UHGV virus genome: UHGV-1353844
DNA from: a virus
Length of the DNA: 64,000 bases
Reading direction: 5' to 3' (one strand)
In this document: in pieces, positions 21,344 to 63,609 of the stretch
How the letters are laid out: the number at the start of each line of letters is the position of its first letter
Position numbering within the stretch: position 1 is the stretch's first letter
Program-made: the position numbers and the translations under genes
Notes under the pieces: model-generated
What the model saw: only the letters and a program-made list of their open reading frames with translations
Databases searched by the model: none
What the model was told of the DNA's origin: nothing

Positions 21344-21348
21344 GTATA

Positions 21349-21837: not shown

Positions 21838-21854
21838 GTTTTAATTTCCTTAAG

Positions 21855-22403: not shown

Positions 22404-22404
22404 G

Positions 22405-45924: not shown

Positions 45925-46043
45925 TTTCCCCTTTTTCTTACGCTGGTATTATATATTGTGACCTGACGTTGGTAAGCTTCTTATCAACACTTTTCTTAAA
46001 CCTCATCGTTTAGTTAAGCAGGCCACTTTTTTCGCGCACTCAC

Positions 46044-46063
46044 TCCTCCCTTCGGGGAGGAGC
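46044..46063 (+). terminator. Hairpin (CTCCTCCC-TTCG-GGGAGGAG) about 120 nt downstream of the 321-aa gene
   Basis: GNRA-like TTCG loop; weak T-tract; coordinates approximate. Confidence 0.35.
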
Positions 46064-46350: not shown

Positions 46351-46375
46351 CTCCTACCCTCTTAGAGGGTAGGAG
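46351..46375. terminator. Bidirectional terminator (CTCCTACCCTC-TTAG-AGGGTAGGAG) flanked by A-tract and T7 tract
   Basis: Between convergent genes 46333 (+) and 46381 (-); coordinates approximate. Confidence 0.6.
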
Positions 46376-46380: not shown

Positions 46381-47859
46381 TTATTTTTTTCTTGCACGGA
46401 AACGATGCATTTCCAAATAGACTTTTTCCCAGGGACCGAAAGGTCCTACGATTGCCTGTGCATCGTTAATTTTCTTCTGGTTATACCAACGGGCCTCACG
46501 GAACACGTAGTTTTGACTGTCGAATTCCGTGGTGTTAAATACCCATTCCCCTTCTTCCCACGTCGGCCAATAAGCAACGGTTTTACCGAAGCGGTTTAAC
46601 AGATAGCCCAGCTGTTTTTCCCCATCAGGGTCATTAGGATCTTTAAGGTATAAACGTCCCCAGATAGCGTTGTGAGAAACCCCCACAACTTCTTCTTCCA
46701 GATACGGATTATCCACCGTAAAGATAAACGACGACTCGTGGGTTAAAAGCGCCTTTAATGTTTCTGGGTTGCGGATACGCTGTACGCTGGTCGGGGATGA
46801 CAGATCGCCAACACCGATGCTATCCCAGTCGTAATAACGTCGGGTTTCTAACACAGTACGCGCAACGTCAAAGTTCGGTAACGAGACCATAATGGCTTTG
46901 TCGGAGAAGTACCCAGTAACCGGTAACCAGTGTATCAGACCCCCGATAACAAACCCCACGGTTTTACCCGTAATAGATTCCGGTAAAGAAATCATTAACG
47001 TGGAATAATAGTCACGGGTGGTGTCGAGTTTGTTTAGGGTCAAGTTAGCAATGGGGTACGTTTTAACATTCCCCAATTTACTAAAGACCATGCAGCCGAT
47101 ATCCGGTGTCCCTGCACGACGTACTATCTTACCCGCGCCCGGTAAACGTACACCAACTGTATCCGACTGATGTGGTACCCATTGACCGTTGATGTTGTAC
47201 AACACCCCGTTACGGTATTTGTCTTTCCATTTATCTTCGCAAACAATCACAACGTCGTCAGCATCGTCTATACTGAAATCTTGACTGTAATGGTAACCGG
47301 GAGGACACAGGTAGGTTTCTACTGGAACATCGGCATTAATCGATTGGTAGTGTGCCCAATCAAACTCTAACGTCGGTAAACCGTCTTTCAACGCAGAGAT
47401 AACCACACCGGCTTTTTCATTCAGCCAGTCTTGTAACGTATCGGTACGGTTTTGTAAGTCAGCGAGGTGATATTGGCTAATTAACGTATAGTCTTTACCA
47501 AGCGCACTCAGACCGACTTCGAAAATATGGTAATCAGAACACAAGGTTTCTAAGGGTTGCGTGACGTCGATGGCTCCCCAGGTACGGGTCTCTCGAGAGA
47601 AGCCAAAAGCGCTGTCAGGCCGCACTTGATAAGCAGTAGTCACAGCTCTTTTCCTCAATAGATTCAAGTCATAGTATGAACTCGACGCCCACGGACTATA
47701 GGAGTAGATAATGGCTGTCGTCCTAGACCCACACTTCAAAGAACCGGGGAATAAAATAACCGGTGAAGCGGTCGCCGTCATTGGTACGAAGTACCGAATG
47801 TTGGTACCTGCCCACGCCCCTTTTTTCACCACATCCCTGGTGGTCAAGAGCGGCGGCAA
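46381..47859 (-). CDS. Hypothetical protein (up to 492 aa) on the minus strand at the head of the tail-fibre block; start uncertain (track start is TTG; first ATG at 47781 has no clear RBS)
   Basis: Long ORF filling 46381-47710 where no + strand ORF exists; 5' end overlaps the divergent start of the 1440-aa gene. Confidence 0.45.
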   Translation of the reverse strand: MPPLLTTRDVVKKGAWAGTNIRYFVPMTATASPVILFPGSLKCGSRTTAIIYSYSPWASSSYYDLNLLRKRAVTTAYQVRPDSAFGFSRETRTWGAIDVTQPLETLCSDYHIFEVGLSALGKDYTLISQYHLADLQNRTDTLQDWLNEKAGVVISALKDGLPTLEFDWAHYQSINADVPVETYLCPPGYHYSQDFSIDDADDVVIVCEDKWKDKYRNGVLYNINGQWVPHQSDTVGVRLPGAGKIVRRAGTPDIGCMVFSKLGNVKTYPIANLTLNKLDTTRDYYSTLMISLPESITGKTVGFVIGGLIHWLPVTGYFSDKAIMVSLPNFDVARTVLETRRYYDWDSIGVGDLSSPTSVQRIRNPETLKALLTHESSFIFTVDNPYLEEEVVGVSHNAIWGRLYLKDPNDPDGEKQLGYLLNRFGKTVAYWPTWEEGEWVFNTTEFDSQNYVFREARWYNQKKINDAQAIVGPFGPWEKVYLEMHRFRARKK

Positions 47860-50800
47860 AATACTGACCTTAGGCGACGATTACGTTATTACACACCCGT
47901 ACGAGACCGGTATGTTGCGCACAGCCTATCTCGTGCACGGGATGATTTGGATTGTTAATGACAAATACAAATCGAATTTCACGGTAGATTACCACGCCGT
48001 AGGTTGTGGTGAAGCGACCCAAGAACAGATTACCGCAGAACGCGAACTCAATAAAGATAAATACCCGTCTGCGTGTCAATGGGATACCGTTATCGGCGAA
48101 GTTTACTTTCCACCGGTCGATATTCAGTTCGACTGGGAAAACTGGAAAGGTGAACTGGAATTAATGCAGGCCATTGCAGGCTTAGGTGATTCGTTAGGTA
48201 ACGTGGTGAATCGGGTAGACCCGATTGCACGTAACACGTTAGATATCGAGCATCGTGCTAATGGTACGGTTATCACGTCTGAACAGTACGCAACGTACGA
48301 CAACAAAGGTGGGTATACTTACAATACCGCTAAACGCCGTTTCTCCGTTACGTACAAAACCACCACGTTAAATGAATATTCCCTGTCGATGAAATACCGT
48401 ATTCCGGCTATTTTTCCGAATATGGGGAGTATTAATCCGAACGAACAAATCGATTGGATGTTGTGCTACGCGAACGGTGGCGCAAGTATCCTTCGTCTCC
48501 AATTAAAACAACGTAAAATCAGCCTACGACTGACAGTTGCGTTAGGCAGTGGTTCGACCGATTATGATTATACGTTAATCAACGGTTTGACCGACGATGA
48601 ATTAAAAGGCGAATTAACGTTTAGCGTTGTTCGTCAACCGGGTAACGGTGTATACGTTATCGAGGTGACGACTAACAAACAGTCCATGGACTACACCTTT
48701 AACGTTGACACACCGCCAGACGAATTCTCAGCAGGTTACACCAAAACGGATGTTGCGAAGTGGCTGAAGTACAAAACCAACGTTAACTTAAACTGGTGGG
48801 CGGCTGAGAACGATTATGCTCAATTCCTTGCGTTACCTGGTGCGCCAGAAGCAGACGTAAGTAACGACGTTTATCAGTTAATCGTTAAGTACCATCAGTT
48901 AGTAGAACAGCTCTATCGCAACGCGCCTGCGCACGAACACGTCACCCGTAAGGATAACCCACACGCTGACACCTGGGGTCCGATTCGTGCGTTAGAATTA
49001 AACGGCATTGCATCCGACGCAGCATTAGCCTACGGGAAAACTAAGGAGCAATTAACCGATTACGTAAACGCTAAGTACCCAACGCAGGCAACGTTAACCG
49101 CCCAGAAAAAACTGCTTCGTGAATCAGCGAGCAAGAACGTTAACGGCACGATTACAACGCTCCCCGGCTTTACGTCATTTACTACTGAAGTCGACCCAGT
49201 GTCGATGTCGAAGTACGTGAGTCCTTATTTTAGTGAAAGCTATGTTAGTAGTGGCCACAGATATCACGGTGCGCTTCGTTATACAGGAACGAAAAGCGGT
49301 TTCAGTGCTAACTTTAATGCGGTACCTGCCAACCTGCAAGATATTGACTTTATTGTTACCGGACGTAAAACAGCGTCTGGTAATGAAGCGGTCGGTAGGG
49401 TTGGTTTTCGTTTCTACGAAAATCCCGGTAGTAACTCCGGTAAGTACGTAGAGATTACCGGTGAAGTCTGGTCCGGTACTCTTACTATCGAACTGGCGTT
49501 GCACGGTTACGGTAGTCCTGTACCGGCAGTTCGGTATATTTCGCAAGCTCCTAATCCGGCAATACCGGATGGGGATTTTACGCTACGTTTTCAACTGAAG
49601 CGTACAGGGAATGTGTTTGACGTCGTTATTACCGTAAACAGTAAAACGTATAGCGGTCGGATTAACTTCAATAACATGGACGCTGCGTTAGAAGCATTAG
49701 AGAATCAGCACCACTTTAAATCGCTGATCAATAATGTTGCTGACGGCGTCAATATTAGTTCGCAAAACAAAGGTAACACGGTTACCATTAAGAAAGCACC
49801 TGGCGTTGTTGACGAGAGACGTTTAGGTGCTCAGTTTGTCGTTGATCCGAAATCCATTAAGTTCATCGGTCAAGGTTCTACTGACGTTAACGTGGGTAAC
49901 AACCCGGTAACGTTGCAAGCGGGAGATAACCAGCTTGTGCTATATCCTGATGACCGTGGATTACTGTGGCGCGGTAAGAAACTCTTAGACCCCACTACGG
50001 TAGCGCCGTATTTGCCGGGCAATACCGCAGGCGGTACGGGATTATTCTACGGTGCAACTACAGCTACAGTGGAACTTACGGGTAGCGGGATTAAAGCGTC
50101 GCCGTTTGTCGCAACGTTTATTCTTCCGGTTGCCGAAGACGTTACTACGTTAGCGTGTTGGCAGTTAACGGACGAATTCGGTACGGCTGAAAACCTCGCA
50201 GCAACCCCTGCGTTAATTGAAAAACTGGACGCAGAGTTTACCGGTAAGTTAGTTGCCGCCAAGTCGTACATCAACGACATGCAGCTTACCAGTTCGGTTA
50301 CTATCGACAAAATTACCTTTGGTTTAGGTAACGTTGCGAATACCCCGGACGTTGACTTACCGATTTCTGTTGCACAGCAGACCGAGCTGGACAAATACTC
50401 ACCGAAGGTTCACCAACACCCGTCTTCCGTATTCGGTGTTGCGAACGCAGACACCACGAAACGGGGCCTGATTAAATTCGGTCTGGAAGTGGATGATGCC
50501 ACTTTAGCGCTCGACGGTAGTGTGGTGATGGCGCAGACTTCCCAGATTGAAGATTTGGAGAATACCGTCGGCGGGGTTGACTCGGGTGCGCGCGTTGACA
50601 TTATTCGCTTTGGTAAGTCCGGTAACGACCTAATTGACGTTACGGTTAAAGACAAAATCCTAGTGACACTTCCTGCTTCCACGTATTTCGTTGGCGGCGA
50701 AACGTACGACGTGCCGTTGATGTCGGTTAACGTCACTGAACGTTTCCCGAATCTGAATAAGGAAATTTACGCAGGGATTTTTGTTGACATTGTCGATAAC

Positions 50801-52033
50801 AAAGCGAAGTACATTATTCACGACAGCTACAGTCAGGCTGAAACGGATACCATGACGCGCGTGGGTCTAATCGGTATTAACGACCTTTCTGAAGTGTTCG
50901 TTACTGAACTACGTAACGTGACACGGTTAGGCGATTTCCGTGAGCTGAAAGACCACGTCGCCAATGATAACGCACACATTCAGCGTTCTGCTTCACGTGC
51001 AGTGCTGGGGTTAAGCAATTTAACAGTAGGTGCGCCCTGCTGGGCTTCTGGACTTCAAGCGGTTGTGCGTGGCGAAGCAGACTGGCGTTATGTGGTTGGC
51101 GGTGGATATAAAGCACTCGATGGTGTGAAATACGACCAGCTTGCGTCGAAGTGGGTGTTTGATGCAAAAGGGGTAAGTGATAACGTTCACGGGTTTATCC
51201 ACAACCTGTTCCCGGTATTTAACAATGCGGGGATGCGAGTCAGTTGGGAAACCGAAAGCAACGCAAAAACCGGAACGGTGCTAGAAACCATCCTGGCTTG
51301 CTGGAAAAATACCGAAGACGAGTTTATGCGGTTGTCGTTACTTATCACCCGTGGTTATCGTTTAACCGACAGTAACGGTGAGTATTGTTACGCCGGGTTT
51401 GGTTTAAACTTCGGTAACGGGAAATCCGTGGTGTTAGGTTTCACGCCGACCAAACGCGTTACCCCAGCACCGTGGAGTACGTTACATCCTGACGTATCAT
51501 TTACCCACACGCGTGGTGCGAATAACGAATTAACGTTTAACGCAACGCTGACCTTAGCAGGTACTGTTTACACTATTGTGGTGTATTTGTCTGCGGCAGA
51601 TAAATACGTAAGCTGTACGGCGGCAGGTGGTACTACGCAGAAAATCTCGCTGACCGACCGTTTAACTGGGTTCAACCTCGCGCCTATCGTTAACGATCCG
51701 TACACCCCTATTTACTACGGTTTAGGGGGACTTTATGAGGACGAAGTGCGTGCTAATATCCGTTCTACGACAGACAGCATAACCGGGAACAAACTCTACG
51801 GTACGCTGTTGGATTATATCAGCAACTACTCCTCGTTAAATCGTGTACGCGTCATGGAATTGGCCGGGACAAGCTCAGACCCTGAAACGCTTAATGCGCT
51901 AGTGGCAACCGAGTTTAATAACAGCCTGGCGGATTACGCTGCGTTACCGATACCTCCTTATCTTAACAAGGAGCGCGTAATGTCGTTTATCGACACCAAC
52001 AATAAAGTGCAGGCGGTAATCATTCGCGATTAA
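47711..52033 (+). CDS. Tail fibre protein (1440 aa) with T7 gp17-like N-terminal attachment domain
   Basis: N-terminal pattern RMLVPAHAPFFTTSLVV...LGDDYVI shared with the three following genes and resembling recalled T7 gp17 (NIPFEYLARKFVVVTL...TDYRF); AGGAG RBS. Confidence 0.6.
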   Translation: MAVVLDPHFKEPGNKITGEAVAVIGTKYRMLVPAHAPFFTTSLVVKSGGKILTLGDDYVITHPYETGMLRTAYLVHGMIWIVNDKYKSNFTVDYHAVGCGEATQEQITAERELNKDKYPSACQWDTVIGEVYFPPVDIQFDWENWKGELELMQAIAGLGDSLGNVVNRVDPIARNTLDIEHRANGTVITSEQYATYDNKGGYTYNTAKRRFSVTYKTTTLNEYSLSMKYRIPAIFPNMGSINPNEQIDWMLCYANGGASILRLQLKQRKISLRLTVALGSGSTDYDYTLINGLTDDELKGELTFSVVRQPGNGVYVIEVTTNKQSMDYTFNVDTPPDEFSAGYTKTDVAKWLKYKTNVNLNWWAAENDYAQFLALPGAPEADVSNDVYQLIVKYHQLVEQLYRNAPAHEHVTRKDNPHADTWGPIRALELNGIASDAALAYGKTKEQLTDYVNAKYPTQATLTAQKKLLRESASKNVNGTITTLPGFTSFTTEVDPVSMSKYVSPYFSESYVSSGHRYHGALRYTGTKSGFSANFNAVPANLQDIDFIVTGRKTASGNEAVGRVGFRFYENPGSNSGKYVEITGEVWSGTLTIELALHGYGSPVPAVRYISQAPNPAIPDGDFTLRFQLKRTGNVFDVVITVNSKTYSGRINFNNMDAALEALENQHHFKSLINNVADGVNISSQNKGNTVTIKKAPGVVDERRLGAQFVVDPKSIKFIGQGSTDVNVGNNPVTLQAGDNQLVLYPDDRGLLWRGKKLLDPTTVAPYLPGNTAGGTGLFYGATTATVELTGSGIKASPFVATFILPVAEDVTTLACWQLTDEFGTAENLAATPALIEKLDAEFTGKLVAAKSYINDMQLTSSVTIDKITFGLGNVANTPDVDLPISVAQQTELDKYSPKVHQHPSSVFGVANADTTKRGLIKFGLEVDDATLALDGSVVMAQTSQIEDLENTVGGVDSGARVDIIRFGKSGNDLIDVTVKDKILVTLPASTYFVGGETYDVPLMSVNVTERFPNLNKEIYAGIFVDIVDNKAKYIIHDSYSQAETDTMTRVGLIGINDLSEVFVTELRNVTRLGDFRELKDHVANDNAHIQRSASRAVLGLSNLTVGAPCWASGLQAVVRGEADWRYVVGGGYKALDGVKYDQLASKWVFDAKGVSDNVHGFIHNLFPVFNNAGMRVSWETESNAKTGTVLETILACWKNTEDEFMRLSLLITRGYRLTDSNGEYCYAGFGLNFGNGKSVVLGFTPTKRVTPAPWSTLHPDVSFTHTRGANNELTFNATLTLAGTVYTIVVYLSAADKYVSCTAAGGTTQKISLTDRLTGFNLAPIVNDPYTPIYYGLGGLYEDEVRANIRSTTDSITGNKLYGTLLDYISNYSSLNRVRVMELAGTSSDPETLNALVATEFNNSLADYAALPIPPYLNKERVMSFIDTNNKVQAVIIRD

Positions 52034-52043
52034 GGAGAATTTT

Positions 52044-55000
52044 TTGATGAAAGCGTATCCTTACGATCCTCGGGGGACGAAAACCGAGAATCACTTCTTA
52101 GAGGAGCGTATCATCGGGTCAGAAAACAACAACGACCGGGTGGTGATTTTAGACCATCGCCCGTTCTTTGAAGACTTAGTCGTCAGACAACCAGGTTCAA
52201 CCACCCCACTGAGCCGTGGGGTGGATTACGAACTGCAATATCAGCTGACGGAACTGGATGACTCGGTAGCAGCCAACGTGTATTGTGGGGTACACCTTAT
52301 CAACCCATCCATCAAAGGCATTGTAACCTTTGAAGGGCAAATGCTCGGCGGTACGTTCTACGACCCGTTCGTTGACATGCTCGACGAGCTGGTGAAATAT
52401 TTGAATAACCCGGTCAGTGCAGACTGGCTGTTGTTAGACGGTAGACCGTCGTTATACCCGGCTACGCCAGCGGCAACGTCCTGGGCGGACTTGCTGAACA
52501 AAAAATATTTAGCGTCAGCGATTCACGATATCGAGCTGAAAACCGATGATGCTAACCAGCTAATTAAAGATAAATTAGCCGAAGTTAAAGCGCTAGTGGC
52601 TGCGTTGGGGAAAGAAATCGAAGCGTTTAACTACCCAGCACATATCGCCGCGACGAACCCGCACGAAACCACGAGCGCACAAATTAATGCCCATCCCGTT
52701 AACCTGAAAACACCTGACACCTTTATGGCGTACGGGTTAAAATTAAAAGCGTTAACGGAAGAACTGAAAGCGTTTCGTTTACCACAGTCAGTTATTGACA
52801 CGTATATCTCCCACTGGATTTCTTCGGAAGTACGGGGCGTGTTTAACTGTACGGTGTCTGGAAACCGCGCACAGTTCCGTTCGAAAAATGGTGAGTCCGA
52901 AATCATTTTTGCGAATGATGGCTTTACGTTAAAATCCAACGGTTCTGTGGTATTGGCGGTAGGGCATCTGGAAGGCACAGGTGCGGGACGTTACATTAAC
53001 TGGCGTGCGGGTAAAAACACCTTACGTATCGAGTCAACCGGTGACGCTTTAGGGATGAACAAACTCACTCTGAACGGTAACCCGTTGTTGACCACCACAG
53101 CGCTGATGGAGTATCAGCAAGACCCTGATGCTGGCGGGAGTGGCGGTAGCGATCCTGATGACTCCAAAGTGTATATCGAAGGCCGTAACGGGATTAGTTT
53201 TACCGGTAAAGGTTCTCGTGCCGATCCTATCGTGGGGACTATCGACCCGACGAAAGCGACCACCGCTGAAAAAGGTGTTGTTAAACTTAAAACCGGTAAA
53301 GGCACAGAAACGGTTGGGGTTGCTGCAACCCCTGCGTCATTAACGCCGTATTCAACCGACTTATCAGGGTACGTGACTAAAACGACCATGATTAACGGTA
53401 AACCGATGAACGACGGTTCCAGGACAATCACAAAAGCTGACCTGGGATTAGGGCAAGCGGATAACACCGCAGACCTCGACAAACCGTTGTCAACCGCACT
53501 GAATGCTTCGGTTAGTGGTTTAGCAGACGTCGGACACCATCACGACTGGTCAGAGTTAGGCATTTATAAAGCCTCGCAGTCGATTTACGGCATCGGTCGT
53601 TACGCAACTAACCAGAACGGCTTAGTTGAAAACCGTGCGGTGGTACCGAACATCTTAAAAGAGCTTTCAGCCCGTTTAGATGTGGTGGCTGCTGCAATTG
53701 CAAACGCGAAAGAAGGCACGGTAACTGATTTTGCTGCTGTGAAAGGTGCAGACTGGCGCTTTAATAGCCAGGGTACGTCAATCTCCGTTCAGGATTTGAA
53801 ATATTTCTATTTGCTGGACGGGACGAAAGGCGACAGCACCGTTACTGGTGCGATTGACCTGCAAACCACCCCGATGTTTAACTGGTTCTCACCGAATAAC
53901 CAGCTTGAACTGACCTGGCCTACGGGTAAGGTGAGTAACGGTACGGGAATCAACTGGACGGGTATTGAAGAACCGCCGTTGATGGGGTTCCAGTCTGTCC
54001 CGGTAGGTAAAACTGCTACACAGATGGGTGACCAGTCAGTCGTTACGGTTCTGGCAAAAACGCGTGTAAGGGCGTACCAATCGAAGCTCTGGGTTTATGC
54101 CGCAGGGGGCGGACCGGTAACCGTTTATATCAACGGTAACCTAGCAGCTTCAGGCGAATCTCCACTCGTTGCAGTGTATGAAACGTCAGCAGACGTTGAA
54201 AACTACACGATTGCGGTTAAAGCTGAATGTAGTGACACGGCTAAGTCCGCAGCGGTACAGTTTGAAGTTTACGATGGGGATTACCCTGTTTACTTCAGTG
54301 GCCCTGAAACGCGCGTAGAGCTTCTCCAGGAGTTTGTTACCACGCACGTAGGGATTCGTCACTATCTGTACGTTAACATGCTCACAGGCTCTCTGTATTC
54401 GCGTGCTGAACCGATTCAGAGCATCGCAGTTGATCCTGAACGTGGTTATATCGGTTACGTTGATATTGTTGCTGGTGAGAATTACGCGAATAAAACGGTA
54501 GGGTTCGAAACCACGTTTGATTTCGGGAAAAGTGCCGAGGTTAGTGAACACATCGACACGCGTAAAGCACACGGACTCAGTTCTGTGGACTGGGCGTTAA
54601 CGGATAACCCACGTTTGCCGTTATTAAACCGTGCTATTGCCGAACCAAGAGCGTGTATCTTTAGGAAAGCGTTAACAGCCGGAACAGGTGATGTTTTCCA
54701 TCTTGTCAGTCGCGGTCTTTATACTTACGCACACAACCAAAACGTGAAGTCCAGTCTTCAGTACGTTGTGATGCCTGAAGGTGCTACACCGTATTGCTGG
54801 TTTACACCGTTTAACCCGAAAGAAAACAACGCACCGACGTTCGAAGGTTCGTTTGCATTCGATGTTGACGACGTCGGTGGAACACAAGCACTTACTGCCG
54901 CACCAGATTTGGTGCTATGTACGTCAACGCAAGGGGCGAGTGTTAAACGTCGTTATGTACGTATTGACCTGACGGACAAAGCGTGTAAGTTGGGGATTGG

Positions 55001-56228
55001 TTCCCGTTCAGTTTCAGACGTTACTGACATTCCGTTGGTAATGGAAGAGTCTGGGGAAACAGCGGTGAATGCAACGTTTAAGGACGTGTTGTTCAACGGT
55101 GAAGAAACCAACCCCGCGATTCTCGATTTGATTGGCTGGGGTGCCACCCGAGATAAAATCTCTGCAAACCATGCACCTCGTGGGATGATTCGTTACCGTT
55201 ATAACGTAAGTACGCGTGTGTTACGTTTAGCGTTGTCGTTCTCGCAGTTTGGGACGACGACAGTTAAACAACGTCAATTGGAGATTCAATTCCCGTTTGA
55301 CTTGGTGGATTATTTCACCGGTGACGGAATAGGGTTGTCGTTTAAAGAACTGAGCGCGAAATGCCGAGTAACAATTAGCCACGCACTGATTGATCCGGTT
55401 ACGAACAACATCGACATTGATAAGTATCATTACTTACGTTCGTTGTTTGAGTCGTATTTGGATTCATCCGTTGGGTATTTGGCTGATAACAAAGACGCTG
55501 ATTATAGTCAGTCTGTGATTGACCCTGCGACTTATGAGATTAGTCAAAAATACCGTGCCACGGAGAGCATTGCCTTGCCAACTGGTCAGGGAAACGTTGC
55601 GGTTTCTCACGATGGGCAGTTACCTGCGCAGTTCTTTGATCGTAAGCTGTCTCGCGGTGCGCTGATGGCGAAGAAAAACGAACTGCATACTTCCTGGAAC
55701 AACGAGTGGAGTACGACTAAGGCTGCTGCAAGTCGTTATCGTCACAAACTCATTCTCCGTTTTGCACAAGGTGCCGATAAACAACAGTACCGAATTGCAA
55801 AAGTGTCAGGAACGATAAAAAGTAACTGGCCAGGTAAGGTGATTATCGGCGACGCAGGGAAAGACCCATTCTTAGCGTCTACTGATAGCGCAGAGTTTGC
55901 TCTGTCAACCAGTGCTGACGTAGGTAAAGCGATTAGTATCACGGCCACCGACTTACGTGTAGGTCAGGACATCTATATTGTCTTAGACCCGCCGGGTGAT
56001 AATCCCGAAGGTTACGAGCTTAACTTTACCTGTTCGTTAGACGTGACTGATGAGCAAAGCACTCGTCAGGATCAGCTTAATGCGCAGAGCTTCGAACTGC
56101 GTAGCGGTGAAAAGCAGTTCTTAATGGAGAAACGCAATCCGTACCATATCACGAGTAAAGCGTGGAAATGGATACTTTCTGTACTGAAACGTGAACTTAA
56201 CGGGAAGCAGTTAGGGGATCGTACTTAG
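52044..56228 (+). CDS. Tail fibre protein (1394 aa; probable ATG start at 52047) with T7 gp17-like N-terminal domain
   Basis: RVVILDHRPFFEDLVV...RGVDYEL; TAAGGAG RBS; fibre-like TKATTAEKGVVKLKTG and HHH motifs. Confidence 0.6.
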   Translation: MMKAYPYDPRGTKTENHFLEERIIGSENNNDRVVILDHRPFFEDLVVRQPGSTTPLSRGVDYELQYQLTELDDSVAANVYCGVHLINPSIKGIVTFEGQMLGGTFYDPFVDMLDELVKYLNNPVSADWLLLDGRPSLYPATPAATSWADLLNKKYLASAIHDIELKTDDANQLIKDKLAEVKALVAALGKEIEAFNYPAHIAATNPHETTSAQINAHPVNLKTPDTFMAYGLKLKALTEELKAFRLPQSVIDTYISHWISSEVRGVFNCTVSGNRAQFRSKNGESEIIFANDGFTLKSNGSVVLAVGHLEGTGAGRYINWRAGKNTLRIESTGDALGMNKLTLNGNPLLTTTALMEYQQDPDAGGSGGSDPDDSKVYIEGRNGISFTGKGSRADPIVGTIDPTKATTAEKGVVKLKTGKGTETVGVAATPASLTPYSTDLSGYVTKTTMINGKPMNDGSRTITKADLGLGQADNTADLDKPLSTALNASVSGLADVGHHHDWSELGIYKASQSIYGIGRYATNQNGLVENRAVVPNILKELSARLDVVAAAIANAKEGTVTDFAAVKGADWRFNSQGTSISVQDLKYFYLLDGTKGDSTVTGAIDLQTTPMFNWFSPNNQLELTWPTGKVSNGTGINWTGIEEPPLMGFQSVPVGKTATQMGDQSVVTVLAKTRVRAYQSKLWVYAAGGGPVTVYINGNLAASGESPLVAVYETSADVENYTIAVKAECSDTAKSAAVQFEVYDGDYPVYFSGPETRVELLQEFVTTHVGIRHYLYVNMLTGSLYSRAEPIQSIAVDPERGYIGYVDIVAGENYANKTVGFETTFDFGKSAEVSEHIDTRKAHGLSSVDWALTDNPRLPLLNRAIAEPRACIFRKALTAGTGDVFHLVSRGLYTYAHNQNVKSSLQYVVMPEGATPYCWFTPFNPKENNAPTFEGSFAFDVDDVGGTQALTAAPDLVLCTSTQGASVKRRYVRIDLTDKACKLGIGSRSVSDVTDIPLVMEESGETAVNATFKDVLFNGEETNPAILDLIGWGATRDKISANHAPRGMIRYRYNVSTRVLRLALSFSQFGTTTVKQRQLEIQFPFDLVDYFTGDGIGLSFKELSAKCRVTISHALIDPVTNNIDIDKYHYLRSLFESYLDSSVGYLADNKDADYSQSVIDPATYEISQKYRATESIALPTGQGNVAVSHDGQLPAQFFDRKLSRGALMAKKNELHTSWNNEWSTTKAAASRYRHKLILRFAQGADKQQYRIAKVSGTIKSNWPGKVIIGDAGKDPFLASTDSAEFALSTSADVGKAISITATDLRVGQDIYIVLDPPGDNPEGYELNFTCSLDVTDEQSTRQDQLNAQSFELRSGEKQFLMEKRNPYHITSKAWKWILSVLKRELNGKQLGDRT

Positions 56229-56267
56229 GACAGGCTGCCTGCGGGCAGTTGTGTGTCCGTAGGTAAC

Positions 56268-56290
56268 CCCTCCCTGTAATGGGGAGGGGT
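56268..56290 (+). terminator. Terminator hairpin (CCCCTCCC-loop-GGGGAGGGG) followed by T-rich tract
   Basis: After stop of 1394-aa gene; coordinates approximate. Confidence 0.5.
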
Positions 56291-56322
56291 ATCCATTTTA
56301 TTTAAAAGTAGGAGTCTTTACG

Positions 56323-59300
56323 ATGCCGAGAGAAGACGCGGCGCAGTTTAACGGTACGCTAAGCACAGCGACGTACCCTAACCGATTTAACGTGGTCATT
56401 CCGCCTGAAGGACCTTTTTATCGTATCGGATTAAAACTCACAGTAGCCGACGATACCGCGCCTAACGGACGTCGTACTCTGATTGAGGGGTTGGACTACT
56501 ATTTAGGCTATTACTTTAAAGAACTCGCAGAAGCTGAACAAGATCAGATTTACGGCGGGTTTATGTTGCTTACTGCAACAGAAATCGAATATGAGATTTT
56601 AGGGGTAGCACGTCAATACCGTGTACCGCAATCTGAAATCGGGAAGTTCTTAGTTCGTACTGACCTGAAAGACCCACGTAACGTGGACTGGTCTGAACTA
56701 ATGGCGTATGCGCCGGTTATTCAGCCTATCGACCCGCCTGCTAACTTAGAAGAAGCGATTCTGAGGGATGAGGTTGTTAAGGCGTTAGAAGACATTCGCA
56801 AGAAAATCATCAAACGTTCTACGGAATTAGATGCTGCGTTCAGTGAAGTCACTAACTTGATTTACGAGAACGGTAAAAAGGTTTTCGACGAAGAGTTATA
56901 CCAGCATCACCGTAACCCTAACGCGCATCATTATACCACTGATGACATTGCTGCTCTCCCGGTATTAGGTCGTGCTGTTGACGCTACAAAAGCGTTTGGG
57001 TTGACGATTGACGAGTTGGCTACGCTGATGGGTTCAGCGGGTATTGAGCAATCGGACGTTGACCAGTTAATGGGTGAAGCCCTCGGCACCGTTTACGGTC
57101 GATGGGGTACCACGAACGGTAATGAATTAACGTTTAAAACGTCAGGTGGCCACATCATCAGTATTCGTGGTGATAAGTGGTTAATTACCTCGCCACAACC
57201 GTTGGTGATTAAAGCAGACCAGGACAACAACGAATCGGGTTTAGCGGTTGAATTCAGTGCGGGTCTGAATACGCTTTGGGTTCACTCGGGGTCGGAACAG
57301 GACGTATTAGCGCCAGTTTATAACTCCGTGTACCTGGTTACACCAGAAATGGTGAACATGTATCTGACGTCAGTAACGTTGCTTGAAGCAAACGCGTATT
57401 TCAAAGCGTCAGACACTGTAAAACCGTACGGTACCGCAAAACAGACTAACCCGGTTACGTTAAACGCGAATATTCCCACGGCGTCCGAATCAGTTTATGG
57501 GTTGTTCTCGATTACGAATATCTCTACGTCTGCGGCGTTAGGTACTGCTATCTCCCAGAAAGCTGTAACAGAATTAAAAGACCGCTTGGACTTGTACGTT
57601 GACGATGACTATACCGTTAACGGTAAAGGGTTTGTTAAAACAGGCGACAATATGGTGTTAACCTTAACGAAAACCGATTTCGGTATCGATAAGATGGATA
57701 ACACCATACCGAGTGATAAGCCTGTGACAAAAGCGTTAACGAACGTGTTGAAAAACAAGAGTTTGAAAACGCACACCCACACCACTGCTGACTTGGATAA
57801 CGTCCCGATTGGTAGTGCAACGGTTGACGGTATCTTACAGCTCTGGGATGCAATTGACACCACTAACGATAAAGCTGTCACGTCGCGTCAAGGCTGGTTG
57901 TTCGCAAAAGAGATTAAGAAGGTCTCTGATAAACTGAATACCATCTTACCGGCGTGGACGGTAGGTGGAGCGAAATTCGGTAACAAGAACTTCTTACCTA
58001 TCCCAGCGTTAGGTAACTACGCAGGCTATACCAAAAACCAGTCCTACCAGAAAGGGGTTGTTGGGTATCAGCAGGGTAAGGTTTATTCGCTCCGTAACGG
58101 TTCTAACGGCGTGCCGGGTACGGAAGCTATTTATTACGGCTATGCTGACATTGACACGTCAAACGCGTTTGTAAATCCGCAGCAGACCTCAGTGAAATAT
58201 CACCCTGCCGGGATGAGTAAATATCCTGGGGTGACCCTAATAGCGATATTGATCGGTGGCCAGGAAGCGATTATTTGCCTGGGTTCTGACAATAACCGTT
58301 ATTTGGTGCTGTTTAATGGCTCGATGGACCACACTAAGCACACGGTGGTATGTCGCGTTACGATGCCCGTGTACCGTAACGGCAACCCCAGTGGTACTGT
58401 GGAACAAACCTGGAACCCGTGGCCGGAAGCTGACGATGTCGTGTTGGTTGAGGACTACGTTTATCTTCTCCGTTCAACGGTAAATAACTCCGCTTACGCC
58501 GTAGCAGCTTGGCGTCTACGTAAGGCCGATTTGTCTACTAACACTACGTTAGAATTTGAACGTGTAACTCTAACCGGCGAGATGGGACAATTCGGAGATA
58601 ACCTCTGCTTGCGTATTGGTCAGAAAACCGAAGAGTCGCAAACGGGTCAATTCTTTACATATCTCACACCGGAGGGTCGTGCTAAATGGACGATCGGGCG
58701 TAACTTTGTTCACGGTCCAGAATGTAACCACGCGTGTGCTGTGCGCGATAGCGTGATTCGTGTGAACCATATGCCTACCGTGTGGTTTGCAGCGGCCGAC
58801 GGTACGACGATTAATTTCCTTCAATGGGCAACAAGTTTTACAATCGATACGTTGACGGGCAAGGTTACGTTAGAAGGCCGCGAACGCTTCCCCATCAAGG
58901 CTGATGCTACTACTACACTCTCGTTCGCAGATGGTTCAACTGTAGGAACCAATCGTAAGTGGGGTGGTGGCCAGGCAAACAACCGTTGTTTCGCGACGTA
59001 TGCTAAACCCAACGGTACAGGAATGATGCTTTCCTGTTGGCAAATTGCCGATGCGGACCAAATGCCTAATGTTTCTATTAAGAGTACACAAGGCAGAGAG
59101 CTTTTCGATTATCTGCGTTACGATAACCCAAACAACACCTCGGGCGAAGGAACGTTTACCTGGGATAAAGGCCGTGGCTCCATTTACACCATCGGTTTGT
59201 CTTATCCAGTAGGGATTGGTGGTTCGAATAAGGTCTGGTTATCGAACCCTCGTAACCGTTACACGATCGAAGTGGAAGTTGATCCGAACAAACCTTACGA

Positions 59301-61509
59301 TGTTTCTGGGTATAGTGGGTACGGTCCGAACAACAACCGTCGTGAAGTCGATCCAACGCTTTACGAGCAGCTTAGCTGTATGGCTGCGTGCATGATCCCT
59401 GAGGAGCGTCATGGACAGTTGAACGGCTGGTATTTGACCAAAGCAGAAACGTTCCCGTATCGTAACATCTACGGTAACTTCGCATTGTCTTCCGAACGCT
59501 TAACGCTAGAAGAAGCCGATCGGCAGAAAATGATTCGGATGATCGTTGACGGTGCGCCATCTGGTCAAGCAAATGGTTACGCGAACGAACGTATTAGTGC
59601 TGCACATCAAACCGGTAATGCATTGTTTGCTCTTTGGATGTTGGGTATCAACACCGTGTGCGAATTTGACTTGTTGCAAGTTTCGTGCATGAAAACCTCA
59701 AGTAACGGACGTCGAATTCTTGACATCTATTACTTCATGGTGAGCCCATCTAAAGAGAACGGCTACTTACGTTTCAACTCAGCCACCTTTAAGTTGGTGG
59801 ACTGGTTCTTAGACCTCGATTATGGTTTAAGTTATCAGTCACTAAATGGGGGAGCGGGAGGTAAAACGAGGCGCGTGGGGCAGCCTATTTTTGCATCTGC
59901 GGATGGAACTAACTTCGGTATCTGGTTACCTTATACGTTAACTACCCGAAATATCGGGGACTTAAACGCCCTGGGCTACGCTGCTAAATATACCTTCGAC
60001 CCTGGTTCAGGTTGGACACGCGTTGCAGGTAAATCACAGTTACGGCAGATGGCCCCTGAACATAGACCAGAATCTGGGTGCTATATGGGTGCCGGTGATT
60101 GGGACAAGATGGCGTTGATTTACTCTAAAGCTGACCGTGTTTTCTGTTCAGGTAACGCGTATACAGCCGCAGAGTTCGTTAACGACACGACGTTCTCAAC
60201 CGGAGGTCAGGCGGTTATTATTGCCGGTGTGGAAACAGCGGAAGGTTGGATTCTGTATTTGACAGAAGAAGTCAAATTAGATTTCGGTAGCAGCAGTTAC
60301 ACACTCCCAACGTGGTCTGTGGATTTAAGCAGTGAGTTCCCATCCAATCACGCTAACCAGACGTTCTACGTGCACGCTGAGGTGTCGGGTTCTACCGCGC
60401 AATACCGCATCGGTTTGGAGCAGTTAGCCGATACCTCAACAAGACTGTTCGTTGGGACAGTAACCACCGATTCCAGCCGTATTACTGGTATCAGTATCGA
60501 CAAAGTAAAACGTTTGGGTCGTGTGAAAGAACTGGAAGACCACGCAGCAATTATCGACCAACACGATGTAGCAGCAGCGTTTGACAGAAAGACGGGTCCT
60601 CTATTAACACTGGTTAACAAGCCCGTTAAAGCACCTACGGCGTCTGCGTCGAAAGGTGAAGGGTATGTTGACGGTCAGAAATGGGGTTCACTGTCCGGCA
60701 TTACGACGCGTCCTAAGTTACCAATTCAGGAAACGTATTCGGGTTATAAGAGCGTGGCCAGGGTAGCGTATGAGAACTGCGCTGACCAATTCTGGCAGAA
60801 AGCGGTAGCTGCTAACATTGCGACAGCCACTGCTTCTGAGAACATGCAGGCAGCGTCTGCGAACATGAAATGGATTGGTGCGTATACGAAACCGACTACC
60901 GGAACGAATGCTTACTTAGCATTGAGTTTGCGTGTTCAGGTGCCAGGTAATCCAGGAACGGCGAATCGTGCTCTGAAACTACGACTTGCTGCACCAACCG
61001 GTATTGTTGAAGCTCGGTATGCATTAAACCAGGCCGGTGGTACGATGACTGAACAAACGGTAACGTTAACCGCCAACCAGTACCTGGAAAAAGAGCACAG
61101 TGGGTTTAAACCTGCCGAGGAGGTTCGTGTTCATGTCACGTTCGTTATTCCGAAGAACGAGTATGAAAGTTATCGTACGAAGTTTGGGGCGGTACAGTTG
61201 ATTGACGTTGAATCGAACACCATCGTCAAGCAGGCTGATATCGACACACCGTTCTTTGTCTTTACGGACACTGAACTGGCTGCGCAATCTGGTTTGGTGT
61301 ATAAAGCGGTCAAGGGTCAGTTTGACAATCTCCCGAGTGAACCTACGCTCATTGTCCGAGATGGTCAGACCGGAACTAACCCACCGGTGAAATCGTCTTA
61401 CGCTAACGGTACGCTAACCGTTTACGTAGCGACCGCGTACGATGCCGTGAATCCGGCGGAAACTCGCGATATCGACAAACTCCAGTTCAATCTTATGTTT
61501 ACATCTTAA
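56323..61509 (+). CDS. Tail fibre protein (1728 aa) with T7 gp17-like N-terminal domain
   Basis: NRFNVVIPPEGPFYRIGLKLTV...EGLDYYL; AGGAG RBS. Confidence 0.6.
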   Translation: MPREDAAQFNGTLSTATYPNRFNVVIPPEGPFYRIGLKLTVADDTAPNGRRTLIEGLDYYLGYYFKELAEAEQDQIYGGFMLLTATEIEYEILGVARQYRVPQSEIGKFLVRTDLKDPRNVDWSELMAYAPVIQPIDPPANLEEAILRDEVVKALEDIRKKIIKRSTELDAAFSEVTNLIYENGKKVFDEELYQHHRNPNAHHYTTDDIAALPVLGRAVDATKAFGLTIDELATLMGSAGIEQSDVDQLMGEALGTVYGRWGTTNGNELTFKTSGGHIISIRGDKWLITSPQPLVIKADQDNNESGLAVEFSAGLNTLWVHSGSEQDVLAPVYNSVYLVTPEMVNMYLTSVTLLEANAYFKASDTVKPYGTAKQTNPVTLNANIPTASESVYGLFSITNISTSAALGTAISQKAVTELKDRLDLYVDDDYTVNGKGFVKTGDNMVLTLTKTDFGIDKMDNTIPSDKPVTKALTNVLKNKSLKTHTHTTADLDNVPIGSATVDGILQLWDAIDTTNDKAVTSRQGWLFAKEIKKVSDKLNTILPAWTVGGAKFGNKNFLPIPALGNYAGYTKNQSYQKGVVGYQQGKVYSLRNGSNGVPGTEAIYYGYADIDTSNAFVNPQQTSVKYHPAGMSKYPGVTLIAILIGGQEAIICLGSDNNRYLVLFNGSMDHTKHTVVCRVTMPVYRNGNPSGTVEQTWNPWPEADDVVLVEDYVYLLRSTVNNSAYAVAAWRLRKADLSTNTTLEFERVTLTGEMGQFGDNLCLRIGQKTEESQTGQFFTYLTPEGRAKWTIGRNFVHGPECNHACAVRDSVIRVNHMPTVWFAAADGTTINFLQWATSFTIDTLTGKVTLEGRERFPIKADATTTLSFADGSTVGTNRKWGGGQANNRCFATYAKPNGTGMMLSCWQIADADQMPNVSIKSTQGRELFDYLRYDNPNNTSGEGTFTWDKGRGSIYTIGLSYPVGIGGSNKVWLSNPRNRYTIEVEVDPNKPYDVSGYSGYGPNNNRREVDPTLYEQLSCMAACMIPEERHGQLNGWYLTKAETFPYRNIYGNFALSSERLTLEEADRQKMIRMIVDGAPSGQANGYANERISAAHQTGNALFALWMLGINTVCEFDLLQVSCMKTSSNGRRILDIYYFMVSPSKENGYLRFNSATFKLVDWFLDLDYGLSYQSLNGGAGGKTRRVGQPIFASADGTNFGIWLPYTLTTRNIGDLNALGYAAKYTFDPGSGWTRVAGKSQLRQMAPEHRPESGCYMGAGDWDKMALIYSKADRVFCSGNAYTAAEFVNDTTFSTGGQAVIIAGVETAEGWILYLTEEVKLDFGSSSYTLPTWSVDLSSEFPSNHANQTFYVHAEVSGSTAQYRIGLEQLADTSTRLFVGTVTTDSSRITGISIDKVKRLGRVKELEDHAAIIDQHDVAAAFDRKTGPLLTLVNKPVKAPTASASKGEGYVDGQKWGSLSGITTRPKLPIQETYSGYKSVARVAYENCADQFWQKAVAANIATATASENMQAASANMKWIGAYTKPTTGTNAYLALSLRVQVPGNPGTANRALKLRLAAPTGIVEARYALNQAGGTMTEQTVTLTANQYLEKEHSGFKPAEEVRVHVTFVIPKNEYESYRTKFGAVQLIDVESNTIVKQADIDTPFFVFTDTELAAQSGLVYKAVKGQFDNLPSEPTLIVRDGQTGTNPPVKSSYANGTLTVYVATAYDAVNPAETRDIDKLQFNLMFTS

Positions 61510-61549
61510 TGACTCGAGACAAGGACGTCTCGAATAAAGGAGAGTGGCC

Positions 61550-62749
61550 ATGGCCTCCATTGTTTATCAATATCCTTTAGATTTAACGGGCTCGCTAACG
61601 TCTAACGCTGTAGAGCGTCAGATTACGTTAGGTACAGGTAAAGTAAACCGTGCTTTTGCTTTTCCTGACGGCCCGTTCTTTGCGGACACGTTCCGTTTAC
61701 GTGTTGCTAACCGACCGGATGCAACCTACGAACGTGGTACCGATTATGAGTTGATTTTTGCACACCCGACTTATGAAAAGCTGACTAAAAACCGCGAGAT
61801 TGTTATGGCGGTGGTGGTCACTAACACAGCGATTCCAACAGATATTACGGTATCTGCGCAGGTCGTTGGTGGTCCACAGTCTGCGAACATTGTGGCTATC
61901 GAACAGGCGATTGCTGAATTAAACCTCGATAACCGTACGATTGCGTTTAAAGACCTGCGTAACGTACCGGATACATTCCCATCTGCACCGACGTATAAAG
62001 ACGTGGGTGACATCTACGGTTTTGAATATATCATTACCGTATTGGCGGGTATTAAAGATGCGATCAGTTCCGGTGACGCGGTACAGTTAGAGAACATTAA
62101 AGCGATTTTAGAAAGCCTGAAAAATGACTTCTTAGACGCTTTAAATGCACACATCAACGCAACCGGTAACGTTCACCATCTTGATATTCATCAGGTTAAC
62201 GGGTTAACAGAAACTGAAATCCGTGCGCTTATTCGTGACGTCCAGTCTGCCATCGACGCAACGATTACGGAAATCAATGCACTGAAGAAAGCGGACGAAG
62301 CTTTAGGTAAGCGTATTGACGCTGTTGTCAACTCTCTGGAAGCGTGGAACGACCAACTTAACGTGGTTGCTCAAAACTACCAGAAAATGGCCTTAGCGTT
62401 AGCGAACCTGAACTCGTTAGTGTTACAACTGCAAAAGAGCATCAACGATTTAAACACAAAACTGAATCAGGTTATTCAGCGTGTTGCCGCGTTAGAGCAA
62501 CAGGGTCAAGAAACCGATCAGAAAATCGATCAGGTACAACAGAACCTGGATGCGCTTAAACAGCAAGTTAACAATAACACGAACGCAATCAGTCAAGCGA
62601 ACCAGAACCTACAAAACCACATCGCGGCAGATAACCCGCACACCGGTTATCTCCACAAGAGATACGGTGGTGTGGTTCAGGCCCCAGTACACGTTAACGC
62701 TAACCTGACGTCTCGTGATGACGTACAGGCGGAAGCGGGTACGAAATAA
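61550..62749 (+). CDS. Short tail fibre-like protein (399 aa from ATG at 61550; track start GTG 61544) with T7 gp17-like N-terminal domain and Gln/Asn-rich coiled coil
   Basis: NRAFAFPDGPFFADTFRLRV...RGTDYELI; heptad-like LNQVIQRVAALEQQGQETDQKIDQVQQNLDALKQQV. Confidence 0.55.
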   Translation: MASIVYQYPLDLTGSLTSNAVERQITLGTGKVNRAFAFPDGPFFADTFRLRVANRPDATYERGTDYELIFAHPTYEKLTKNREIVMAVVVTNTAIPTDITVSAQVVGGPQSANIVAIEQAIAELNLDNRTIAFKDLRNVPDTFPSAPTYKDVGDIYGFEYIITVLAGIKDAISSGDAVQLENIKAILESLKNDFLDALNAHINATGNVHHLDIHQVNGLTETEIRALIRDVQSAIDATITEINALKKADEALGKRIDAVVNSLEAWNDQLNVVAQNYQKMALALANLNSLVLQLQKSINDLNTKLNQVIQRVAALEQQGQETDQKIDQVQQNLDALKQQVNNNTNAISQANQNLQNHIAADNPHTGYLHKRYGGVVQAPVHVNANLTSRDDVQAEAGTK

Positions 62750-62814: not shown

Positions 62815-63207
62815 ATGGCGATTAGTGTTAAACAAATGCGCGATCGGTTAACCACAGTAGAAAATACAGTCGCTACCGGCCCTCGTGTCAATGCGCAGGT
62901 CGCATCGAAAGCGCATAACGCGGCAGATTCGTTTTCCGGTTGGACGCCTTCGCGTTTAGACTGCGGAGGAGCGTGTTCGTGGACATGTTCTAACGGATGT
63001 ACTCACGGTTGCTCGAGCTGTTCAGGAAACTGTTCAGCGTCGTGCGTGGGTAGCTGCTCTTCGTCCTGTGGGGGCAACTGTTCGGGATGCTCTGGCTGCT
63101 CGGGGGCTTGTTCTAGCAGTTGTACAAGTACCTGTACTGGAAGTTGTACTGGGCGTTGTTCGCATAACTGTTCGGGTGCTTGCTCCGGCGGTTGCTCTGG
63201 TCGATAG
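62815..63207 (+). CDS. Cys/Ser/Gly/Thr-rich repeat protein 1 (130 aa): about 49-aa conserved N-terminal region then about 80 aa with about 21 Cys mostly spaced C-x3-C
   Basis: MAISVKQMRDRLTTVENTV...LDCGGACSWTCSNGCTHGCSSCSGNC...CSGGCSGR; AAGGAAG RBS. Confidence 0.6.
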   Translation: MAISVKQMRDRLTTVENTVATGPRVNAQVASKAHNAADSFSGWTPSRLDCGGACSWTCSNGCTHGCSSCSGNCSASCVGSCSSSCGGNCSGCSGCSGACSSSCTSTCTGSCTGRCSHNCSGACSGGCSGR

Positions 63208-63609
63208 GGGGAAGAAATGGCGGTTGGATTAGCTGAATTAGTAAGACGTCTTAATAACGTCGATAGTATCGCGCTGAAAAACACCACAGGTGTACAGAAC
63301 TACATCCGCAATAAGGCCACGAATAACGCGGACCTGTTCGGTGGTCGGAATCGTGCGCATTATGACTGTGCGGGCACGTGTTCCTTTACCTGCTCGAGTT
63401 GCTCTGGTGGCTGTACAGGGAACGCGTCTGGTGGTTGCGGTTCTTCATGCTCTGCAAACTGTACGTCAGGGTGTTCAAGTAGCTGTTCAGGGTGTTCGGG
63501 GAGTTGTTCGGGTGGGTGCGCTAATGCGTGCTCGGGCACTTGTACGGGCGGCTGTACAGCATCGTGCTCCAGTAGCTGTACCGGTGGCTGCTCGTCGTGC
63601 ACAGGACGA
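62962..63609 (+). repeat. Degenerate 12-bp-period coding repeat (TGY-TCN-GGN-NNN type) underlying the Cys-rich proteins
   Basis: Seen directly in the nucleotide sequence; it also generates long antisense ORFs rich in PEQ. Confidence 0.5.

Follow-up and report, generated by a model that had tools for sequence, protein, structure and literature searches.

UHGV virus genome UHGV-1353844 encodes an array of four putative tail fibre proteins that begin with a common N-terminal domain. We analysed a stretch of 64,000 nucleotides of this genome (the window), in which the array occupies positions 47711 to 62749. By profile comparison the N-terminal module of all four proteins, here termed F1 to F4, is the gp131-like N-terminal domain (N-domain) of phiKZ-type phages. 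We think it likely that the proteins dock through these domains under a homologue of phiKZ gp130 and co-assemble as hetero-oligomeric fibre roots, with the distal parts of F1, F2 and F3 binding the host and F4 acting as a conserved coiled-coil partner. The system is already known from phages SPN3US and phiKZ, and what the window adds is a new member with strongly diverged distal domains. The new points are minor: F4 and its SPN3US orthologue gp167 belong to the family, the N-domain family is very large and is not covered by any Pfam model, and the ratio of long to short paralogues is inverted.

Four tandem genes with a common N-terminal domain

The window has 285 six-frame open reading frames (ORFs) of at least 60 amino acids (aa). 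Four of these follow one another on the + strand across the array, each with a Shine-Dalgarno site. F1 (47711-52033, +) encodes 1440 aa from an ATG start with the ribosome binding site (RBS) TAGGAG, and is the orthologue of SPN3US gp170. F2, the orthologue of gp169, ends at 56228 (+) and could begin at TTG 52044 (1394 aa) or ATG 52047 (1393 aa); the ATG is the more likely, matching the starts of the orthologues and of related contigs. F3 (56323-61509, +; 1728 aa) and F4 (61550-62749, +; 399 aa) are the orthologues of gp168 and gp167 respectively. F4 is listed mechanically as 401 aa from GTG 61544, but we favour ATG 61550 because of its RBS spacing and an identical database cluster (P0003) of 399 aa. 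The coordinates and lengths that a first-pass annotation had given for the four genes are thereby confirmed, with F4 taking its 399 aa from the ATG.

At the DNA level the window matches the Erwinia phages Asesino, Stratton, phiEaH2 and pEa_SNUABM_29 and two Salmonella phages at 72-77%, in short stretches only. The F4 protein shares 76.6% of its residues with SPN3US 'virion structural protein 20', and the same four genes occur in the same order in SPN3US, Cronobacter phage CR5 and Erwinia phage ChrisDB. Near-identical metagenomic contigs of ~220 kb also exist, in which F1 is again 1440 aa long. From the DNA and protein similarity, the shared gene order and these contigs it follows that the window is part of an SPN3US/phiEaH2-like nucleus-forming jumbo phage. 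SPN3US gp167-170, together with gp171, are direct orthologues of the genes seen here, in the same order and orientation (Thomas 2016, Ali 2017).

The N-terminal similarity between the four proteins is undetected by pairwise BLASTP, and profiles are needed to reveal it. A four-way alignment has invariant P37, F38, G55, D57, Y58 and G98. PHROG 2163 matches all four N-termini, at residues 4-141 of F1 (6e-16), 4-216 of F2 (2e-29), 15-578 of F3 (1e-42) and 2-400 of F4 (7e-103). When profiles of the ortholog groups were compared using hhalign, probabilities were 98.3% for F2-F3, 97.7% for F2-F4, 93.5% for F1-F3, 71.5% for F1-F2 and 58.3% for F1-F4, while control comparisons of N-terminus with C-terminus between the window groups gave no more than 4%. 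Lastly, a hidden Markov model (HMM) built from phiKZ and 201phi2-1 proteins only was searched against the 285 ORFs. It ranked F4 (7.8e-27), F2 (2.1e-17), F1 (3.2e-15) and F3 (5.2e-4) at the top, and the fifth-ranked ORF scored 0.13. The motif is thus present in the alignment and the three profile tests agree, bearing out the earlier claim that all four proteins begin with a related module. That claim had put the module at about 60 aa, and in this respect it requires revision. The shared module is ~165 aa in length, and in F2 and F4 it is followed by a helical segment and an H-x-H/NPH motif, extending to around residue 215.

The profile matches identify the module as gp131-like. Comparison of N-domains by hhalign gave 97.9% (E 4e-13) for F1, 98.4% (E 5e-15) for F2 and 94.5% (E 8e-8) for F3, each against phiKZ gp131, and 99.4% (E 1.5e-21) for F4 against phiKZ gp135. 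A tblastn search with F4 matches gp220 of 201phi2-1 (E 2e-13), which is annotated as a paralogue of gp216-219 and as similar to the phiKZ gp131 family. On the strength of these alignments and of the phiKZ/201phi2-1 HMM we assign the N-terminal module of F1-F4 to the gp131-like domain. The ~165 aa domain is likewise homologous to those of phiKZ gp131, gp133, gp134 and gp135, which with gp132 make up the fibre complex associated with gp130 (Sycheva 2012; PMC13250141).

A neighbour-joining tree of 164 N-domain columns recovers every ortholog group as monophyletic in 200 of 200 bootstraps, and separates F1, F2, F3 and gp131 from F4, gp133, gp134 and gp135 in 175 of 200. By sequence F4 is therefore placed in the phiKZ gp133/134/135 branch. 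Both the phiKZ and SPN3US lineages have four N-domain-bearing paralogues, divided between the same long and short branches. The composition of the sets differs. That of phiKZ has one long protein (771 aa), three short (~460 aa) and the 110-aa gp132, whereas the window has three long (1393-1728 aa), one short (399 aa) and no gp132. phiKZ multiplied the short branch, and the SPN3US lineage expanded the long one, to three members. The N-domains of the paralogues are only 13-19% identical to that of F4, but the F4 orthologues are 50-80% identical among themselves and each window N-domain is 74-80% identical to its own SPN3US orthologue. Since the paralogous domains have diverged and yet each is conserved among orthologues, distinct fixed positions in a complex would fit.

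The domain occurs far beyond these phages. A profile search of 1.84 billion cluster representatives (at 50% identity) returned 3,552 at E<=1e-3, with 2,814 at E<=1e-10; an earlier homologue search with the F4 N-domain alone had given 2 matches only. In the best 150 matches the domain starts within the first ~20 residues of proteins of 157-1727 aa. A Pfam scan of 74 diverse family members found no family covering the N-domain, and the C-termini carried Peptidase_S74 (13), PKD (7), Collar (3), Gp53-like_C (3) and Phage_fiber_2 (1). Given the number of representatives, the N-terminal position, the lack of Pfam cover and the varied C-termini, the gp131-like N-domain is a widespread, uncatalogued fibre anchor joined to many different distal modules. 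The linker that follows the β-domain (profile positions 104-156; e.g. F2 ~118-160) has the motif 'np..vdW..l.gkP..FPP..H'. Two copies of it are present in a solved chain, 9d93_La of 'tail collar fibers gp4' (E 4.8e-8), the family profile's only PDB sequence match. Across the family the motif mostly ends in H-x-H, and the window paralogues are without histidines at that point.

The first-pass annotation had described the module as a T7 gp17-like adaptor. On that reading each of the four proteins would form its own homotrimeric fibre or spike, giving a branched apparatus of four independent receptor-binding or enzymatic proteins. There is some resemblance in motif, T7 gp17 having IPFEY...(26 aa)...TDYRF where F4 has GPFF...(22 aa)...GTDYEL, and the high modularity of the family, with the domain at residues 1-170 and many different C-termini in its 3,552 representatives, would suit such an adaptor. 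Yet PF03906, the family of the T7 gp17 N-terminal domain, matched none of the four window and four phiKZ N-domains at E<=10, in a run where residues 1-170 of T7 gp17 scored 252 bits (E 1.7e-75; gathering score 25.2 bits). Comparing each group profile and a union profile with the same T7 residues by hhalign gave probabilities of 0.1-1%, and PF03906 is found in 0 of the 74 family members. An AlphaFold2 model of F4 has a mean predicted local distance difference test (pLDDT) score of 77.7, and of 82-91 over N-domain residues ~10-110; its best Foldseek match in the PDB, where the gp17 N-terminal fold is represented by 7BOZ and 8E4G, has only E 0.28. Moreover the N-domains of the paralogues seem too diverged to interchange on one site, the density in phiKZ accommodates six N-domains per root, and all the phiKZ paralogues are essential. 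We therefore regard the T7-type arrangement as rather unlikely. As a statement of homology the T7 label is unsupported by these searches, and as a distant resemblance of predicted folds it is left undecided by the model.

An analogy of function with T7 gp17 holds insofar as both would have an anchor at the N-terminus and a helical bundle after it. Besides the lack of any sequence or profile relationship, the two differ in location and stoichiometry. T7 gp17 docks at the gp11/gp12 interface of a podovirus whereas the domain of the F1-F4 type is found at the outer baseplate of a myovirus, and gp17 is a homotrimer whereas the gp131-like root comprises six domains.

Distal regions of the fibre proteins

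We calculated identity to the SPN3US orthologues per 100 residues. Overall the proteins are 54% (F1), 49% (F2), 50% (F3) and 77% (F4) identical, but in the long proteins this falls from N- to C-terminus. Between the first and the last full 100 residues identity drops from 74% to 32% in F1, from 70% to 26% in F2 and from 74% to 18% in F3, and the distal halves are 18-47% identical. F4 behaves differently, with values of 76% and 70% at its ends and 70-81% throughout.

The four proteins have distinct layouts. In F1 the N-domain (1-~165) is followed by an insert, a helix and NPH motif (~386-454), an insertion (~500-700), a central module (728-928), a region shared with F3 (966-1093) and a diverged C-terminus; it matches phrog_7557 in addition to phrog_2163. 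F2 has the N-domain with its helix and H-x-H motif (1-~217), a central fibre module (315-523) and ~870 aa of diverged distal sequence, and matches phrog_8078 over its full length, with no match in Pfam, NCBIfam or the PDB. F3 comprises the N-domain (~11-162), sequence shared with F2 up to ~520, a β-propeller-like region within 551-1300, sequence in common with F1 (1290-1418) and a C-terminus that has diverged. In the model of F4, residues 10-125 form a small domain rich in β-structure and including short helices (high confidence), followed by helices at 152-202, an H-x-H motif at ~203-216, a 140-residue helix at 221-359 predicted to form a coiled coil, and a short C-terminal tail; Pfam gives coiled-coil families only.

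The distal parts had been described as very long and unrelated. They are indeed long and variable, but they are not without relationship to each other. F2 and F3 align over residues 30-522 (hhalign E 7e-33), and a module of ~200 aa is common to F1 (728-928), F2 (315-523) and F3 (313-512). Within this central module is a common tail-fibre motif, matched by PHROG 35419 ('tail fiber protein'), and one homologue carries Phage_fiber_2. In addition the ~130 aa of F1 966-1093 match F3 1290-1418.

F1 is also distinguished from its SPN3US orthologue by ~200 aa of extra sequence at residues ~500-700 (window ~49208-49810). The insertion is absent from SPN3US, CR5 and ChrisDB and present in the near-identical metagenomic contigs. 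It has no similarity elsewhere in F1-F4 and no Pfam match. We considered an internal duplication and rejected it, as no paralogous segment was found. The insertion may be a lineage-specific added binding domain.

Enzymatic activity had been suggested for the distal regions, in the form of depolymerase or esterase domains. Taken further, the array could be a tailspike-like set of enzymes acting on capsule or O-antigen. The predicted model of F3 551-1300 is β-propeller-like, with the catalytic domains of GH43, GH32 and sialidases as its nearest PDB folds, and propellers are often enzymatic according to Sycheva et al., as cited in PMC13250141. However, the searches do not bear this out. No pectate-lyase-type β-helix, SGNH, Peptidase_S74, glycoside hydrolase or lyase family was matched at E<=5 in the whole proteins or in nine sub-segments of F1-F3. 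Against Pfam and NCBIfam the whole F1-F3 proteins match no family at E<=0.1, and the nine sub-segments give two chance-level matches only at E<=5. Single-sequence phmmer of F1-F4 against PDB sequences found nothing relevant, and the ortholog profiles had no homologue among them. Peptidase_S74 is present in 13 of the 74 distant relatives, but not in the window proteins. None of the proposed enzymatic domains was therefore detected in these searches, and an array of enzymes seems very improbable.

Candidate assembly at the baseplate periphery

Immediately upstream of F1 and divergent from it lies a gene (46381-47643, -) encoding a protein of 420 aa. By hhalign this matches phiKZ gp130 and 201phi2-1 gp215 with 99.2% probability (E 5.6e-20, 379 columns), and together with phrog_3337 and synteny this marks it as a gp130 homologue and the orthologue of SPN3US gp171. 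The latter is the ORF130 homologue of SPN3US, and is essential and tail-associated (PMC5105663). The start is most likely GTG 47643, with the RBS GAGGA 9 nt before it; the orthologues begin MTTAYQ. A longer ORF (46381-47859, -; 492 aa from TTG), in which phrog_3337 matches from residue 76, was rejected as an artefact reaching 149 nt into the start of F1. With the GTG start the gene is separated from F1 by a divergent intergenic region of 67 bp. The same layout, with a gp130-like gene divergent from a tandem array of fibre paralogues, is found in phiKZ, 201phi2-1, SPN3US, CR5 and ChrisDB.

Orthologues of F1-F4 in SPN3US and relatives in 201phi2-1 are virion proteins. Mass spectrometry of SPN3US virions found gp167-170 (PMC5694885, PMC5105663), with spectral counts per kDa of 1.90 for gp167, 1.41 for gp169, 1.08 for gp168 and 1.00 for gp170, and 201phi2-1 gp216-220 are also virion proteins by this method. 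Three of the SPN3US proteins, gp168, gp169 and gp170, were named 'paralog family C', described as low-abundance virion proteins similar to phiKZ gp131 and as baseplate or fibre candidates; absence from a tailless mutant was stated for these three only (PMC5694885). The paralog-family column of the 2017 table is blank for gp167 (Ali 2017), whereas in our comparisons F4 and gp167 clearly share the N-domain. SPN3US gp168 (188 kDa) was designated as 'expected' to be essential, its amber mutation occurring only in a double mutant (PMC5105663). Taken together, the presence of the SPN3US orthologues in virions, the gradient of identity and the fibre modules of relatives support the earlier view of F1-F4 as fibre or baseplate-periphery proteins that share an attachment module at the N-terminus and vary in their distal parts.

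How such proteins might be arranged is suggested by phiKZ. In a 2026 cryo-electron microscopy atlas of this phage there are 12 peripheral fibres, with attachment sites beneath gp130, and each root contains six gp131-like N-domains and a six-helix bundle (PMC13250141). The root was modelled as three copies of gp131 with one each of gp133, gp134 and gp135, and the seven-bladed propeller at gp131's C-terminus was placed at the fibre's distal end (PMC13250141). In transposon sequencing no insertions were found in any of gp131-135 (PMC12676376). As none of these genes tolerates insertions, the paralogues are not redundant.

By analogy, we propose that the ~165 aa gp131-like N-domain would anchor each of F1-F4 under the gp130-like outer-baseplate protein. 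The four non-interchangeable paralogues would then co-assemble, with six N-domains and a helical bundle forming the root of each fibre. F1, F2 and F3, being the long ones, would extend downward and carry variable host-specific distal domains, including the β-propeller-like one of F3, while the short, conserved coiled-coil protein F4 would be a structural partner like phiKZ gp133-135. We favour co-assembly over four independent fibres because of the density observed in phiKZ, the essentiality of every phiKZ paralogue and the paralogue-specific conservation of the N-domains. The branched multi-receptor apparatus proposed at first pass, with several fibres on a common adaptor, is accordingly less likely than co-assembly in a single root of the kind modelled for phiKZ.

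A possible further likeness to phiKZ is a distal propeller in one long protein of the array; in gp131 it is the C-terminal domain (PDB 4GBF), and the candidate counterpart here is the β-propeller-like predicted model of F3 551-1300. The distal parts of the window proteins have no detectable sequence similarity to gp131. Different again are the branched systems of CBA120 (TSP1-4) and the hyperbranched fibres of the phiKp24/RaK2 type, which rely on branching domains like those of T4 gp10 and on β-helix depolymerases; the searches of the window proteins detected neither.

A number of observations count against the proposed arrangement. The hetero-hexamer of phiKZ is itself termed a 'candidate', from AlphaFold models docked into maps at 4.4-4.6 Å (PMC13250141), and no structure exists for the baseplate periphery of any SPN3US-type phage. 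The link of F3 to the short phiKZ paralogues is weak by hhalign. The Foldseek search with the F4 model found no convincing relative, among structures that did not include the chains of the phiKZ fibre root. It is the conservation gradient, and no other observation, that points to receptor binding by the distal domains of F1-F3. Finally, the stoichiometry of the phiKZ root cannot simply be copied because the set of paralogues differs here.

In the SPN3US lineage the root might even be inverted, with three copies of F4 and one each of F1, F2 and F3. Each fibre would then have three different long chains, possibly forming a heterotrimeric shaft through the ~200 aa central module. The rough spectral counts of SPN3US would allow this arrangement, but we regard it as doubtful. 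We know of no phage fibres of such a heterotrimeric kind. If it were correct, one fibre would present three distal domains and so three receptor-binding specificities.

A different possibility is that the long proteins are mainly structural, forming a ring or star-lobe at the baseplate periphery, with host recognition performed by others such as DUF7941 filaments or fibres like gp145/146. The published labels are in keeping with this: the SPN3US papers go no further than 'baseplate/tail fiber candidate', and the transposon study calls gp131-135 a 'paralogous baseplate protein family' (PMC12676376). The searches of F1-F3 turned up no domain recognisable as receptor-binding or enzymatic. Related contigs have DUF7941 genes ~6 kb downstream, and their products were proposed in a preprint on phage Goslar (2026) to be baseplate-attached filaments of a 'fibre cloud' that recognise the host. 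Like F1-F4 they are a multi-paralogue, baseplate-associated host-recognition family of the same phage group, the chimalliviruses, but a different one. Other evidence argues against a purely structural role. The steep loss of identity from N- to C-terminus and the lineage-specific insertion of F1 are typical of host-range determinants. There are fibre motifs in the central modules, and a 'W..I..KP..FPP..H' motif is shared with the solved tail collar fibre 9d93 gp4. [quoted passage not shown] We consider it unlikely that the long proteins are chiefly structural, and retain the hetero-oligomeric fibre root as the preferred model.

The Goslar preprint also raised the question of whether F1-F4 are themselves DUF7941 proteins. 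This was rejected, as none of the four has a Pfam match to PF25613 and the gene tables of the related contigs give these genes no Pfam family, while assigning PF25613 to others downstream. One related contig has, 6-10 kb downstream of F4, a GH108 endolysin gene and several small genes of the DUF7941 family (PF25613), at contig positions 16739-17878 and 20546-21200. Given these DUF7941 genes in related genomes, the fibre array would be part of a larger host-recognition gene neighbourhood. The literature on phage Munch and on a dual-receptor Phikzvirus contained nothing on these fibre genes, and in our literature search the receptor of SPN3US-type phages was not established.

Surrounding genes and significance

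Upstream of the array, beyond the gp130-like gene, a gene at 44959-45924 (+) encodes 321 aa that match phrog_3216 'baseplate assembly protein' (E 4.6e-112), and is syntenic with the annotated 'baseplate assembly protein' of SPN3US and ChrisDB. By this match and the synteny, the stretch preceding the array is baseplate-related too.

The genes of the array leave only one sizeable gap, that from F2 to F3, and this contains a candidate attenuator or terminator hairpin (56266-56290, +) with an 11-bp GC-rich stem and a T-rich tail. Similar hairpins, with GC-rich stems of 8-11 bp followed by T-rich tails, are found at 46351-46375 and 46043-46062 (+), both downstream of the gp130-like gene. The stems of the three are related (ACCCCTCCC...GGGAGGGGT; CTCCTACCCTC...GAGGGTAGGAG; CTCCTCCC...GGGAGGAG), and from their sequences they may be phage terminators or attenuators. 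A scan of the region for sigma-70 promoters and terminators was at chance level overall, and such a scan has no meaning for a phage that possesses RNA polymerases of its own.

Directly downstream of F4 are three tandem paralogous genes encoding Cys/Ser/Gly-rich proteins, at 62815-63207 (+; 130 aa), 63217-63612 (+; 131 aa) and 63623-63832 (+; 69 aa). These have a leader-like N-terminal part of ~45 aa and a CxxxCxxx-type core ending in GR, and belong to phrog_6085 (unknown function). There are weak matches to NCBIfam TIGR04114 'tSAM_targ_Cxxx', the CXXX-repeat radical-SAM target family, of 19.5 and 17.6 bits against a cut-off of 20. In a Logan contig (SRR1968191) at 12756-15905, ~1.9 kb past the end of the window, and also in SPN3US at 20356-22471, an ORF of 295 aa and two radical-SAM proteins are encoded downstream of the Cys-rich genes. 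The best match of the 444-aa radical-SAM protein is TIGR04115 'radical SAM peptide maturase, CXXX-repeat target family' (124.8 bits, below the cut-off of 350; E 5.6e-36), followed by the PapB ranthipeptide maturase. By these criteria the Cys-rich genes look like precursor peptides of a radical-SAM, ranthipeptide-like system of ribosomally synthesized and post-translationally modified peptides.

Conservation of all three Cys-rich genes extends to SPN3US, CR5 and ChrisDB. By tblastn they match SPN3US (NC_027402) at 18275-18664, 18678-19070 and 19101-19298, with identities of 77%, 73% and ~32-42%, and the distribution would fit a cassette of precursors and maturase conserved in SPN3US-like jumbo phages. 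The RefSeq record of SPN3US has no coding sequence over the first copy, and over the second a 'hypothetical protein' (18751-19086; VVVAARAQAAV...) that is seemingly out of frame. Because of this the Cys-rich proteins were probably never in the databases used for mass spectrometry searches. A literature search on the cassette of Cys-rich precursors and radical-SAM proteins found no paper.

For the array itself, the analysis gives a functional label to ~16 kb whose database annotation is mostly 'virion structural' or 'hypothetical', namely gp131-like fibre paralogues with a gp130-like docking protein. The expansion of the long branch in SPN3US and of the short branch in phiKZ offers a natural comparison for studying the construction of hetero-oligomeric fibres in jumbo phages and the encoding of host range. 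For host-range engineering in jumbo phages of Salmonella, Erwinia and E. coli, the diverged C-terminal halves of F1-F3 would be the segments to swap.

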